A DNA stretch of 64,000 nt from Blastocatellia bacterium (GCA_038211695.1 JBBQVH010000007.1:34647-98646); one strand, 5' to 3'; shown: positions 34,527-38,088, counted from the stretch's first letter. Program-made: numbers and translations. The notes: generated by a model from the letters alone, not told the origin.

Positions 34527-35075
34527 TTACCAGTCTTTATAAGAAGTTTTGCCATCCAACGCCATTCCCTGTTGCCTGCTGGAGACGTCAAAGATGTTAT
34601 CCAATCCATCGCTTGACGGCGATGTCACCCAGTCGGCGTTCCCCGTCATTGGGTCTTTGGGAAGGCGGCGCAGAAACCTGATCTTTTCCCCATTGGGTTT
34701 ATTGGCCAGTGGAATGCCATCAAGCAAGTCTTCCTGCAGGTCTTTAGGATAGCAGTCGTATTTTTCACGAGGCCGCCCAGCCATATAAAACGGGCTGAAC
34801 CGGCCCTGGTCACAGGCTAAATAGTAACGGTCTATCGCTTGCCGAACTTCGCGTAGGTTGCGGCGCAACTCCATCTCTTTGTCGCGCCGGATGACATTGC
34901 GCGCCACCGGAATTGTTCCCGCCGCCAGAATGGCAATGATTGCCAGGGTAATGATCAGTTCGAGCAGCGTGAAGCCGGATTCACTGACAGGCTGTTTACC
35001 CGTTGTTCGCTGTCCGCGCCTGTCGCCGATTGGCAACAAACAACGGACAACGAACAAGCGATATTTATCGTTCAT
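34527..35075 (-). CDS. gspG: type II secretion major pseudopilin GspG-like; long leader, start uncertain (ORF extends to 35111 and overlaps secretin stop)
   Basis: ...SESG|FTLLELIITLAIIAILAAGTIPVARN... plus conserved GspG core (CYPKDLQ...DPMTGNADW). Confidence 0.7.
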   Translation of the reverse strand: MNDKYRLFVVRCLLPIGDRRGQRTTGKQPVSESGFTLLELIITLAIIAILAAGTIPVARNVIRRDKEMELRRNLREVRQAIDRYYLACDQGRFSPFYMAGRPREKYDCYPKDLQEDLLDGIPLANKPNGEKIRFLRRLPKDPMTGNADWVTSPSSDGLDNIFDVSSRQQGMALDGKTSYKDW

Positions 35076-38000
35076 TGGTTGCACTTGCCACTCCATCGCG
35101 GCTGATGACAACCTGGGCGGCGGCGCCTTTGGCGGGCACGCTCATGTTGCCGATCAAGCTGACTTTGGTGTCCGCGTTGTTAAAAGCGATCTCGGTAGAG
35201 CCTTCGGCAACTGCGGCGAATTCGATCACAATCACCTGCCCATTGGCGGCCACCCCAGCTTTTTGCGGACTCTTAATGGACACATTCAGTAGACCTTTTT
35301 CGATGTTGGAACTCAACACGGGCTGCGCGCCGAACAGGCTGCCGCTGCGCACTGATTTGACTTGCAGCTTGCTTTCGTCAAATCGAATGGCGAGGCTGGC
35401 ACCCATCATCTGGCCTTGCCCGTTGACTTCGACCGTCACGTTAAAGTTCTTGCCCATCTGCTGGCGGTTAGGCGTTGACAGGCTGAAGTTAATATTGCTG
35501 CGCGCCGCTGGCATTGTGGGAAGCGCCTGGCCGACAGGAGCCTTTGGCCCTCGAACACCATCCGGCAGCGGCATCGAATAAGACTCAGGCTGCTTCTTGT
35601 TCTTCTTGTTAGCAGCTTCTTCTTCCGTGCGTTTCTTTGCCTCGTCGGCGTACATCTGCTTGATCTTCGCCATCTTCTCAAGCCGTTCCGGAGTATCCTG
35701 ACCGGCATTTGGCACGGCCATTTGAACCGGATTTTCAGGCTTGATGACCTGGCTTTCCGTCAGTTCGCCTTCCTTGCCGGGAGTTCCGGGCGCGGGATCG
35801 TTTGGCGGAATATCGCTGATGCTGGTTGGTGTCTGTTCAGGCGTCTGGGGGGGCGGTTGAACGATTGGTGCGCCTGATGTCACGGAATTCACCGGAGGAA
35901 CCAGCGAGTTATTGTCGAATTGAGACCGCGCGTTGTTTCTTGTCGCTGGCGCTTGCACAGCGCCGCGCTGCTGGTTGGCTACGGGCTGCATGTTCGTGTT
36001 GGCGGCAGGCTGCACATTGGCCACTTGATTCACACCCACTCCACGCCCGCCCTGCGTGCCGTTATCCGGCGTCAACGGCAGTTCTTGCTGAAGCCCCGGT
36101 GATTTCTCCGCGATCAGACGACGCTCCTGTTCCTCTTCCTGCTGCGCACGGAAGACAACGTCTTCAATGCTGGGCGCCAGGCCGGAGCCATTCTGGTTTT
36201 GGCCGCCAGCGTAGATCGCCAGATAATCTTTTTGCGTGATACCCGCCGAACGGATGATATGCGGCGTGACGGTGATCACGATGTCGGTCTGGTTGCTGGT
36301 TTGCTGCGGCGTGGCGAACAGCCTGCCCAGAATCGGAATCATGCCCAGGATAGGAATGCCTGCCCGTGAGTCTCCCTTGTTGTCCTGATTGACGCCTGCG
36401 ACGACTGACGTCACACCGTCTTTGATGCGCGCGACCGTTTGCAGCGAACGCTGTGTGAATGTTGGCGTCAGATCGGTACTGCTGCCGGAAGCGGCCACAT
36501 CCGAAGTCTCAAACTTCATCTTAACTTCAACGTAGCCTTCGTTGGTAATCGTCGGCGTTGCTTCAATCACCAGACCAACATCACGATATTGAATGGAGTC
36601 AATCCCAGCGCCGTAACCACCGCCGAGGCCCCCTCCCAGTGCTCCATTCACCGCGCCATTTAATGCGCCTCCAACGCCTCCTCCATTCACTTGTCCCGTG
36701 TTATAACCGCTGAGACCGTATTGAGTGCCGAGTCGCACGGGCACGCTACGCCCAACTTTAGTTGTGTTTGCCTGGCCGTCGAGAACATGGATTTGAGTCT
36801 TGTTCAGCAATCTTGAATTGCCTTTCGACTGGAGAAAGGAAATGGTGGTTGGCGGTAAACCGATCATTGCTCCAAGCCCTGTGCTGAAAAGACTATTTCC
36901 TGCTCTTGCGTTTGAATCCCTAATATTTAAGCCAAAGCCACCCAAGTTGCTGAGTCCTGCTGACTTGACGGCCTCCTGGGTAACCGAAGTCGTTGTGCCG
37001 GTGGTGCTGGTTCGCTCTGCAATAAAGTCCACCGGCTTGGTGCCGATCTGATTGCCAATCTGCGTCATGCTGTCGTGCGAGACTTCATAGATTTCCACAT
37101 CAAGCACGACTTCGTTTTTATTCTTGTCCACCATCTCCAGAATCTGCTGCACGAGCTGCAGTTCCTGTGGCGTAGCTTTAACAAGCAGGATGTTACCGCC
37201 CGATGCGCCGCCGCCGCCGCCGGGGCCGCCAGCATTGGTGTCGAGCGTCTGTATCGTGCGTGCGTTGCCAAGCGCCACAGTCACCGCGTTGCGCGCCTGG
37301 GTGGCGTTGATGTTACCCAGATAGAAAGCCTTGACCAGCAGCTTTTCAAAACGAGGCTTATTGGTCGGGTTGTCCTGGTAGACGATGATCGTCCGGCGAT
37401 CCATCTGCTCAAAGGTGAATTTCTTCATGAACAAGATGCTGTCAAACGCCTTGGCCAATGTCACATCGGTCAAGTCTACCTCGGTAACCTTTTCGCTATC
37501 CTTGACCGAATCATCAAAAATAATATTGAGGCCGAGTTGCTTGCTAAAAGTCTTGGCAATTGATTTGAAGCTCGCGTCTTTGAAAGCCACATTTTGGAGG
37601 ATATCGCGATTGCGCGGCTTGTTATAGATTTGAATATCGCTGGTAGGTCTTACATTACCGGAGCTATTAAATGCGACTGGCTCAACACCATTGGCAATGG
37701 CCTTTTGTTGGGCAAGCATTCCCTCCATCTTAATCCGTGCGATCTCGTTCCCCTGGTCGTAGTTGTAGGCTGTACGGTACGCCGTGTAAGCCCCTGCATA
37801 ATCGTTTTGTTCTGATAGTACATCACCACGCTTGATATACATTAACGAGGCTTGCTGTAGCGCGCGCAGGTAATGGAGCCGATATTCGGGGTTGTTCGGC
37901 TCGGACGACACCGCCAAAGCAAAAGCTTGCGCGGCCAAGTCCCATTGCAGTGCGGCTTCGTATTTGGTGCCCTCGTTGAAATTCTTCTTGCCTTTGCCGC

Positions 38001-38088
38001 TGGCAAAAGCAGATGTTGCTCCTGGCAGGAGTAGACAGAACGATAGAATCAGGGATAGCAGTCTGCGAGTCGCGGTGTTTGTGTTCAT
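35065..38088 (-). CDS. secretin (GspD/PilQ family) with N-terminal TPR-like region, Gly-rich insert, long Pro/Gln-rich linker and C-terminal cohesin-like beta-sandwich domain
   Basis: Signal peptide; secretin N-domains (NIIFDDSV...TIIVY); secretin core ...AGIPILGMIPILGRLF...DIVITVTPHII; C-terminal 140 aa FNVTVEVNGQGQMMGASLAIRFDESKLQVKSVRSGSLFG...IVIEFAAVAEGSTEIAF cohesin-like pattern. Confidence 0.85.
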   Translation of the reverse strand: MNTNTATRRLLSLILSFCLLLPGATSAFASGKGKKNFNEGTKYEAALQWDLAAQAFALAVSSEPNNPEYRLHYLRALQQASLMYIKRGDVLSEQNDYAGAYTAYRTAYNYDQGNEIARIKMEGMLAQQKAIANGVEPVAFNSSGNVRPTSDIQIYNKPRNRDILQNVAFKDASFKSIAKTFSKQLGLNIIFDDSVKDSEKVTEVDLTDVTLAKAFDSILFMKKFTFEQMDRRTIIVYQDNPTNKPRFEKLLVKAFYLGNINATQARNAVTVALGNARTIQTLDTNAGGPGGGGGASGGNILLVKATPQELQLVQQILEMVDKNKNEVVLDVEIYEVSHDSMTQIGNQIGTKPVDFIAERTSTTGTTTSVTQEAVKSAGLSNLGGFGLNIRDSNARAGNSLFSTGLGAMIGLPPTTISFLQSKGNSRLLNKTQIHVLDGQANTTKVGRSVPVRLGTQYGLSGYNTGQVNGGGVGGALNGAVNGALGGGLGGGYGAGIDSIQYRDVGLVIEATPTITNEGYVEVKMKFETSDVAASGSSTDLTPTFTQRSLQTVARIKDGVTSVVAGVNQDNKGDSRAGIPILGMIPILGRLFATPQQTSNQTDIVITVTPHIIRSAGITQKDYLAIYAGGQNQNGSGLAPSIEDVVFRAQQEEEQERRLIAEKSPGLQQELPLTPDNGTQGGRGVGVNQVANVQPAANTNMQPVANQQRGAVQAPATRNNARSQFDNNSLVPPVNSVTSGAPIVQPPPQTPEQTPTSISDIPPNDPAPGTPGKEGELTESQVIKPENPVQMAVPNAGQDTPERLEKMAKIKQMYADEAKKRTEEEAANKKNKKQPESYSMPLPDGVRGPKAPVGQALPTMPAARSNINFSLSTPNRQQMGKNFNVTVEVNGQGQMMGASLAIRFDESKLQVKSVRSGSLFGAQPVLSSNIEKGLLNVSIKSPQKAGVAANGQVIVIEFAAVAEGSTEIAFNNADTKVSLIGNMSVPAKGAAAQVVISRDGVASATNER

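Follow-up and report, generated by a model that had tools for sequence, protein, structure and literature searches.

A secretin with a tethered C-terminal cohesin module encoded in a six-gene cluster of Blastocatellia

Known secretin channels are 12- to 15-mers, and cohesins elsewhere are protein-protein docking modules. The gene described here joins the two. It lies in a stretch of 64,000 nucleotides from a Blastocatellia bacterium (GCA_038211695.1, JBBQVH010000007.1:34647-98646), called the window below, and encodes a 1007-residue secretin that ends in a long disordered tether and a cohesin. The protein is the outer-membrane pore of a small machine for secretion or pili in soil Acidobacteria. 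The closest described systems are the secretins GspD of type II secretion systems (T2SS) and PilQ of type IVa pili, the pilotin-binding S-domain, and the cohesins found inside and outside cellulosomes.

The protein resembles T2SS GspD, as known from enterotoxigenic and enteropathogenic Escherichia coli (ETEC and EPEC; 5zdh and 5w68) and from XcpD of Pseudomonas aeruginosa (5wln). It has a secretin C-domain, a Secretin_N domain, an N0-like domain and, after the core, a predicted short helical S-like segment, and it is encoded with GspE, GspF and GspG-like genes. Unlike GspD, it adds an N-terminal tetratricopeptide repeat (TPR) block, a Gly-rich expansion of about 30 residues in the central-gate loop, and 330 C-terminal residues made up of tether and cohesin, and it scores 156.3 bits against the GspD equivalog TIGR02517, for which the cut-off is 351.35. 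The cluster also differs from a T2SS in having no GspC, GspL or GspM gene and a PilM-like gene instead. This PilM-like gene is a likeness to type IVa pili, as is the AMIN domain of PilQ, which occurs in paralogues from the same class. However, the copy described here has no AMIN domain, its score against the PilQ family TIGR02515 is 106.9 bits with a cut-off of 284.35, and its cluster has no PilN, PilO or PilP gene. The TPR block is fused to the secretin, whereas the TPR-lipoprotein pilotins of type IV pilus secretins (Tgl, PilF and PilW) are separate proteins.

The nearest functional analogy is the pilotin-binding S-domain of the PulD-PulS, GspD-AspS and EpsD-EpsS pairs, which likewise binds a partner through the C-terminus, on the periplasmic outer rim of the barrel. 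That element is a short helix ordered on pilotin binding, unlike the 135-residue folded cohesin found here on a leash of 70-260 residues. In the pilotin systems a lipoprotein binds the C-terminal S-domain of the secretin, and in solved secretins the beta-lip alone enters the outer membrane, while the S-domain is periplasmic and lies outside the barrel beneath the inner leaflet (PMC6532946). The cohesin has the same fold as the non-cellulosomal cohesins of Archaeoglobus fulgidus (2xdh) and of Clostridium perfringens GH33 and GH84 proteins (2vo8, 2jh2, 2w1n), which likewise occur as single modules outside cellulosomes. These four matched it with E values of 6e-9 to 1e-7 and template modelling (TM) scores of 0.66-0.75 by query and 0.51-0.84 by target. 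Their host proteins are secreted enzymes or scaffolds, their dockerin partners are known, and they share 11-17% identity with the present cohesin in structural alignments; in contrast, the present cohesin is fused to an outer-membrane channel and is probably periplasmic. Unlike a cellulosomal scaffoldin, the protein has a single cohesin fused to a secretin, and no genes for carbohydrate-active enzymes or dockerins lie near it. No description of a secretin-cohesin fusion was found in full-text searches of the literature, the survey of non-cellulosomal cohesins by Peer et al. 2009 being outside that search. Annotation pipelines already give names to such proteins ("cohesin domain-containing protein" for several at NCBI, "general secretion pathway protein D" at JGI). 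The fusion architecture is robust and specific to one lineage, and the function is inferred.

The secretin and its C-terminal cohesin

The gene is a single continuous open reading frame (ORF) that runs on the minus strand from an ATG at 38088 to a stop codon at 35065-35067. From the N- to the C-terminus the protein has a signal peptide, a four-helix TPR-like domain, an N0-like domain, Secretin_N, the secretin core, S-like helices, the tether and the cohesin. The predicted local distance difference test (pLDDT) values below come from a full-length AlphaFold monomer model.

35065-38088, minus strand: whole protein, 1007 residues, TPR / N0 / Secretin_N / Secretin / S-like / tether / Cohesin (ORF, Pfam, 293 homologues)
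38002-38088, minus strand: signal peptide of Sec type, residues 1-29, ...ATSAFA/SG (reading of the sequence; N-terminal helix 3-20 in the model)
37690-37980, minus strand: TPR-like helical domain, residues 37-133 (four helices, conservation, profile match to TPR proteins)
37375-37596, minus strand: N0-like domain, residues 165-238 (sub-threshold Pfam matches; beta-alpha-beta-beta-alpha-beta-beta pattern in the model)
37123-37338, minus strand: Secretin_N domain of N1/N3 type, residues 251-322 (Pfam PF03958, 23.9 bits)
36241-37116, minus strand: secretin core or C-domain, residues 325-616 (Pfam Secretin; GspD 5w68 and 5zdh are the best solved relatives)
36598-36699, minus strand: Gly-rich insert of about 30 residues, residues 464-497 (expansion of the central-gate loop after the invariant glycine G454)
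36064-36240, minus strand: S-domain-like segment, residues 617-675 (helices; the alignment to ETEC GspD 5zdh reaches residue 650)
35497-36063, minus strand: Pro/Gln/Asn-rich tether of about 190 residues, residues 676-864 (pLDDT about 30, low identity, variable length)
35095-35496, minus strand: cohesin module, residues 865-998 (Pfam PF00963, AlphaFold2, Foldseek, profile against PDB sequences)
35068-35094, minus strand: short disordered C-terminal tail, ...SRDGVASATNER (pLDDT below 50; kept only in the closer clade)

The C-terminal domain is a true cohesin by both sequence and fold. Pfam Cohesin (PF00963) matches residues 867-970 with 43.9 bits against a gathering score of 24.1 (E 3.5e-11). 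A profile made from 26 diverse C-terminal domains of the family has as its best matches among PDB sequences the cellulosomal cohesins ScaB and CipA of C. acetobutylicum (E 2.5e-7 to 3e-3). The AlphaFold2 model built from the same alignment is all-beta, with a pLDDT of 88.7 and a predicted TM score (pTM) of 0.81, and the full-length model places the cohesin at residues 866-996. When the PDB was searched with Foldseek, ranks 1-27 were all cohesins with a probability of 1.00 and TM scores of 0.62-0.75 by query and up to 0.84 by target. The top match was the non-cellulosomal cohesin 2xdh of A. fulgidus (E 6e-9), followed by the GH33 and GH84 cohesins of C. perfringens. The original prediction had seen a beta-rich domain resembling cohesins or Ig-like modules here and had proposed fold comparison, with an AMIN domain or a pilotin-binding S-domain as the alternative outcome; the comparison gave a cohesin. 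No AMIN or S-domain structure was among the 50 Foldseek matches listed, in which integrin ectodomain and nanobody chains follow rank 27. The domain therefore models as neither AMIN nor an S-domain, and AMIN was found separately, at the N-termini of paralogues.

The fusion of secretin and cohesin is a property of the gene. An assembly or gene-calling artefact that joined a secretin gene to a separate cohesin gene is effectively refuted: a few database entries do contain a cohesin ORF on its own, about 170 residues long, but these entries are frameshifted fragments of secretin genes on low-coverage contigs, inside the same type of cluster. Independent assemblies contain the uninterrupted ORF in more than 200 distinct protein clusters, at 45-88% identity, and because of this recurrence it is neither a chance ORF nor an assembly chimera. 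A homology search with the cohesin alignment gave seven short proteins, and the two that lie on long contigs are secretin-gene fragments, which leaves no evidence for free-standing cohesins of the secretin-tail type. On two low-coverage contigs (L004:8001-8522 and L005:5526-8507) the secretin gene is frameshifted into four to five ORFs, which produces the spurious stand-alone cohesins P0123 and P0125.

The nearest cohesins outside secretins, in an exhaustive profile search, belong to multi-cohesin, dockerin-bearing proteins that resemble scaffoldins. One of these was compared directly and is 24-41% identical over aligned segments and 25-29% over full-length repeats. The only scaffoldin-like protein with a named source comes from a haloarchaeon, and these proteins gave no lead to a partner.

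The secretin core is closely related to that of GspD. Pfam Secretin (PF00263) matches residues 419-613 with 105 bits against a cut-off of 27.5 (E 3.1e-30). In all, 21 solved secretins were matched, of which the T2SS GspD structures 5w68 (E 1.3e-17) and 5zdh are closest. In a conservation profile of 119 full-length homologues compared with the query, which is also the source of the identities given below, conserved blocks of the core are 65-80% identical. In this protein the core ends with ...TPHIIRSAG at residue 616, and 391 residues follow it, so the gene is as first described: a secretin with about 400 additional C-terminal residues. The model of the core (residues 325-613) has disordered stretches at 377-421 and 456-498. 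The full-length monomer model has a mean pLDDT of 60.9 and a pTM of 0.28; a low mean is normal when a secretin with long disordered regions is modelled as a monomer.

The tether is disordered and variable, and it is always present in the long-form proteins. Residues 676-860 are about 17% identical, with about 40% gaps, and the length past residue 675 has a minimum of 69, a median of 175 and a maximum of 259 residues. The Pro/Gln-rich linker that had been read from the sequence is thus borne out. Disorder in the full-length model covers residues 662-797 (pLDDT about 30) and 829-863, on either side of a lone charged helix rich in Glu, Lys, Arg and Ala (residues 800-829, 35602-35691 on the minus strand, pLDDT 75-81). 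A comparable charged, proline-free helical segment is found in the family members with long tethers, 59 out of 120, and the helix may be a stiff spacer. The S-like segment before the tether is moderately conserved (residues 617-675), with helices at 622-627 and 641-662 (pLDDT about 65). The cohesin that follows the tether (residues 865-1000) is about 50% identical among the homologues. The conserved C-terminal tail, ...ISRDxVxSxTNE[KR], was considered as a ligand for the TPR block and rejected, because its conservation is limited to the closer clade.

The TPR-like domain is the best-conserved part of the protein. Its identity is 75-80% family-wide and about 75% over residues 26-125, and its four long helices (37-61, 67-93, 97-110 and 115-133) have pLDDT values of 75-90. 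TPR_2 is below threshold in the query (E 0.011), and TPR_2 and TPR_11 are below threshold in rescanned homologues (E about 2e-5); many others have TPR families in their precomputed domain lists. A profile of this block matches the TPR proteins CTPR3, STI-1 and OGT (E 1e-4 to 1e-2). Together with the TPR matches in homologues, this justifies the label TPR-like, under which the N-terminal region had first been described. The signal peptide before it has Cys18 in a non-canonical lipobox context (LSFC).

N-domains of secretin type lie before the core. For the N0-like domain the Pfam families FecR_C, STN and type_II_gspD_N0 are all below threshold (E 4e-5 to 9e-4), and STN or FecR_C is present in the precomputed domain lists of many secretin homologues. 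Secretin_N is below threshold in the query and above it in rescanned homologues. Two Gly-rich stretches had been placed within the N-domains. This holds for the first (residues about 284-298, 37195-37239), which is within Secretin_N and disordered in the model, but the second (residues about 464-497) belongs to the core. The second consists almost entirely of Gly, Ala, Leu, Asn and Val and is also disordered in the model, and both stretches are Gly-rich in the consensus of the family. The second is flanked by segments that align to 'VGQDVPVLTGS...' and '...NTVERKKVG' of GspD, and the central gate of XcpD is formed by residues 466-496, a loop bounded by two pivot glycines (PMC10550240). From this alignment, the insert is an enlarged Gly-rich central-gate loop outside the N-domains.

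Gene cluster, distribution and paralogues

The secretin gene belongs to a six-gene cluster, all on the minus strand, which encodes GspF, GspE, the secretin, two GspG-like pseudopilins and a PilM-like protein. Related clusters were compared at 34 loci of at least 18 kb, and each of the six genes is present in 31-33 of these.

40152-41372, minus strand: platform protein of GspF/PilC type (Pfam T2SSF, E 5.5e-56; 32 of 34 loci)
38491-40113, minus strand: ATPase of GspE/PilB type with an MshEN N-domain (Pfam T2SSE, E 3.7e-129, and MshEN; 31 of 34 loci)
34527-35111, minus strand: pseudopilin 1, GspG-like (N_methyl, weak TIGR01710; 33 of 34 loci)
34054-34509, minus strand: pseudopilin 2, GspG-like (N_methyl; TIGR01710, E 5e-14; 33 of 34 loci)
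33029-33991, minus strand: PilM-like protein, 320 residues (family profile against PDB matches Myxococcus xanthus PilM 3jc8; 31 of 34 loci)

The cluster encodes a T2SS-like type IV filament machine, conserved in the class Blastocatellia, whose secretin belongs to neither of the named families, GspD and PilQ. This label was chosen because the secretin scores below the NCBIfam cut-offs for both and because GspC/L/M and PilN/O/P are missing. Neither these genes nor a prepilin peptidase was found within the cluster or in the rest of the window, and the missing platform genes may be encoded elsewhere. The PilM-like protein has no Pfam match, and 3jc8 (E 4.6e-5) is the sole PDB match of its family profile. 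The program-listed TTG start of pseudopilin 1 gives a 47-nucleotide overlap with the secretin gene, and the true start is probably Met13, at about 35075. From Met13 the leader before the G/FTLLE cleavage site is about 32 residues, which is unusually long for a prepilin.

The distribution of the tail shows that it is a selected feature, common within one bacterial class. A full-length search gave 293 relatives, and nearly all of the best 120 have both Secretin and Cohesin. Every match to the secretin-cohesin family with a named class is from Blastocatellia (Acidobacteriota). According to a family-specific hidden Markov model, the cohesin is at the extreme C-terminus in 201 of the 202 homologues of at least 760 residues and absent from 31 of the 33 homologues of 600-760 residues. 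These two proportions, and the tether of never less than 69 residues, are the reason for regarding the tail as selected. The short-form TPR-secretins are orphans outside the GspF, GspE and pilin clusters and occur in metagenome-assembled genomes (MAGs) that also have the long form. Short orphan forms of about 650-740 residues lie beside subtilase or CHAT/CHASE2 genes (L063:9905-11995, L066:9782-12004 and L061:246-2210).

A scan of contigs with the TPR-block profile, using one genome per species, gave 66 loci. All but one are titled as Acidobacteriota, mostly Blastocatellia, Blastocatellales or Pyrinomonadaceae, or bear odd automated titles and closely resemble such loci; the exception (L058) is a 1.5-kb contig titled Burkholderiaceae. 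No cultured isolate is among the 66 loci. Twelve records (L009, L011-L013, L019-L022, L028, L032, L049 and L058) are titled "uncultured Heliomicrobium sp.", Heliobacteriaceae or Burkholderiaceae, and such titles on records with a Blastocatellia-type cluster are probably mislabelled taxonomy.

The same tail is found on a deeper subfamily with the order AMIN-TPR-Secretin_N-Secretin-Cohesin. All named members of this subfamily are Blastocatellia, and the genes are orphans (L072, L074, L076 and L077, where the gene starts at 10001, or at 7534 in L074). Their contexts differ. One adjoins a gene for a 2160-residue FG-GAP/cadherin adhesin; another lies some 2 kb away from a series of minor-pilin-like genes, one of them for a PilX_N protein, and has a GGDEF gene nearby; a third lies within a Wzy_C/glycosyltransferase (exopolysaccharide) locus; and a fourth adjoins GGDEF and EAL (cyclic di-GMP) genes. 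The MAG JBBIWA01 holds both a cluster-linked copy of the TPR type (L070) and an orphan copy of the AMIN type (L077).

Location, partners and possible roles of the cohesin

The cohesin is predicted to be in the periplasm. By homology the tether starts at the position of the S-domain, and for this reason tether and cohesin should both be periplasmic, as extrapolated from proteobacterial secretins. A cohesin on the extracellular side, which the original prediction had also allowed, is unlikely since the C-terminal S-domain of solved secretins is periplasmic. Should the channel have 12 to 15 subunits, it would carry a periplasmic crown of as many leash-mounted cohesins around its pore. Each cohesin would be a protein-protein docking handle at the position of the pilotin-binding helix of classical T2SS secretins.

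The suggestion that the cohesin tethers a cargo or a dockerin-bearing partner found no counterpart among the genes searched, which were those of the window and of 77 related loci. A regular expression for the dockerin calcium loop, which is too strict for some dockerins, matched neither the window nor some 1 Mb of ORFs from the loci. Two real dockerin modules (from P0128 and P0144) were then used as phmmer queries; as a positive control they recovered at least 15 other dockerins of the scaffoldin set, and in the 1.22-Mb six-frame translation of the window and the loci they found nothing better than E 0.25. Pfam identified no dockerin in the 2160-residue adhesin beside the AMIN-type paralogue. 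A secreted protein encoded upstream of gspF had been singled out as a possible dockerin carrier.

41888-43006, minus strand: secreted protein of 372 residues, of no recognisable family (signal peptide; syntenic in 22 of 34 loci, 74% median identity)

This Cys-containing, beta-rich protein has no dockerin and no match in Pfam, NCBIfam or PDB, including with a profile of 15 sequences. It is absent beside the more distant relatives of the secretin. It is a possible substrate of the system.

Overall the protein is best read as a GspD-type secretin of the six-gene system whose leashed cohesin serves in the periplasm as the docking site for a general partner in the envelope, in assembly or in anchoring, with a rough probability of 0.5. 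The most likely ligand of the cohesin would be a general envelope factor whose gene lies elsewhere in the genome and which acts like a pilotin, in assembly or in anchoring. A general partner is favoured over a cluster-specific cargo because the tail is found on paralogous secretins in unrelated contexts, because two tail-bearing secretins can coexist in one genome, and because no candidate gene for a dockerin or other partner travels with them. Several points weigh against a general docking module. The docking function is taken solely from the behaviour of cohesins elsewhere, the periplasmic placement is carried over from proteobacterial secretins to another lineage, and the stoichiometry of 12 to 15 is assumed. 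Dockerin-bearing proteins, possibly cargo, may be encoded beyond the window and the 77 loci. A pilotin-type role has no obvious need for a tether of 70-260 residues, and the overall confidence of the full-length monomer model is low (pTM 0.28).

Other roles for the cohesin are less probable. The periplasmic cohesins could act as an antenna that captures folded, dockerin-tagged exoproteins at the entrance of the machine, the tag being a secretion signal and the cohesin its receptor. The module is a true cohesin whose nearest relatives outside secretins are in proteins that also bear dockerins, a leash of 69-259 residues would suit capture, and upstream in 22 of 34 loci lies the gene for a conserved secreted protein. 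However, no dockerin was found in that protein, in the window or in the 77 loci, and the same tail is carried by orphan AMIN-type secretins in unrelated contexts. Cohesin-dockerin binding is of high affinity, which would hamper release of the cargo, and capture of cargo is considered unlikely. It is slightly more doubtful that the crown is a substrate receptor feeding exoproteins with dockerin tags, or with unrecognised dockerin-like tags, to the channel. If true, type II secretion would have its first explicit modular pair of signal and receptor. As improbable as cargo capture is an envelope-spanning strap, in which the cohesin docks on the inner-membrane platform or on the protein's own TPR ring and replaces the missing GspC/PilP link. 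The cluster indeed has no homologue of GspC/L/M or PilN/O/P, the minimum tether of about 69 residues could span the periplasmic domains of the secretin if extended, and the TPR block is present in every full-length cohesin-bearing homologue examined. A precedent is offered by GspB/OutB, a type of scaffold reported to fasten secretins to the inner membrane and to peptidoglycan (PMC9239104). On the other hand, TPR-secretin paralogues without a cohesin exist, the full-length model (pTM 0.28) shows no confident packing between domains, the missing platform genes may be encoded elsewhere, and the orphan tail-bearing secretins are not beside platform genes.

Two further roles are rated lower still. 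The cohesin fold is a jelly-roll related to carbohydrate-binding modules (CBMs), so the beta-sandwich could bind glycans as a CBM does and hold the secretin on the cell wall or on exopolysaccharide, in the manner of AMIN domains. The lack of a protein partner in the window and 77 loci and the location of one paralogue in a Wzy_C/glycosyltransferase locus are compatible with this. However, the best matches in both sequence and structure are cohesins and not CBMs, and the AMIN-type paralogues keep the cohesin although they already have a peptidoglycan-binding domain in AMIN, which argues against a simple cell-wall anchor. Glycan binding appears quite unlikely. Display of dockerin-bearing enzymes on the cell surface by an extracellular cohesin is very unlikely. 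Enzyme tethering is the canonical role of cellulosomal cohesins, and Pro/Thr-rich linkers are typical of scaffoldins, but the secretin C-terminus and S-domain are periplasmic in all solved structures, 12-15 tethers would have to thread a gated channel, and no dockerins were found in the window and the 77 loci.

A docking module on a secretin bears on several wider questions. Targeting, anchoring and machine coupling of secretins outside Proteobacteria are poorly known, and a folded docking module at the pilotin-binding position is a concrete handle for finding partners. Should the partner prove to be a cargo, it would be relevant to substrate recognition by the T2SS, a question of long standing. 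For those who build cohesin-dockerin scaffolds, an outer-membrane pore naturally ringed by many cohesins could be of interest as well. In addition, cohesin Pfam matches in soil and sediment metagenomes have sometimes been taken as evidence of cellulosomes (PMC3922913), and the large acidobacterial family of secretin-borne cohesins confounds such counts.

Neighbouring genes

Several conserved genes lie close to the cluster. A lipoprotein gene is found just downstream of it.

32199-32945, minus strand: probable lipoprotein with a c-type haem domain (Cytochrome_CBB3; LSAAC lipobox-like signal; CVDCH; 28 of 34 loci)

The product has a Pro/Ala/Thr-rich tether of about 130 residues and one c-type haem domain. 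In Myxococcus the non-canonical cytochrome c TfcP assists a type IVa pilus component (PMC8833165). As pure conjecture, the lipoprotein could be an accessory factor or even the partner of the cohesin.

Two large proteins encoded elsewhere in the window are probably extracytoplasmic and may be exported. The 982-residue protein at 25817-28765 (minus strand) has DUF7948, SBBP beta-propeller repeats and TIG, and the 1104-residue protein at 11129-14443 (plus strand) has a TIG domain. Neither has a dockerin.

Divergent from the cluster, at 43667-46404 on the plus strand, are genes for a double-FHA protein, which also matches Yop-YscD_cpl, and for a Ser/Thr kinase fused to an FGE-sulfatase domain. This pair is conserved beside the cluster in 24 of 34 loci and may form a module that regulates the machine through phospho-threonine.

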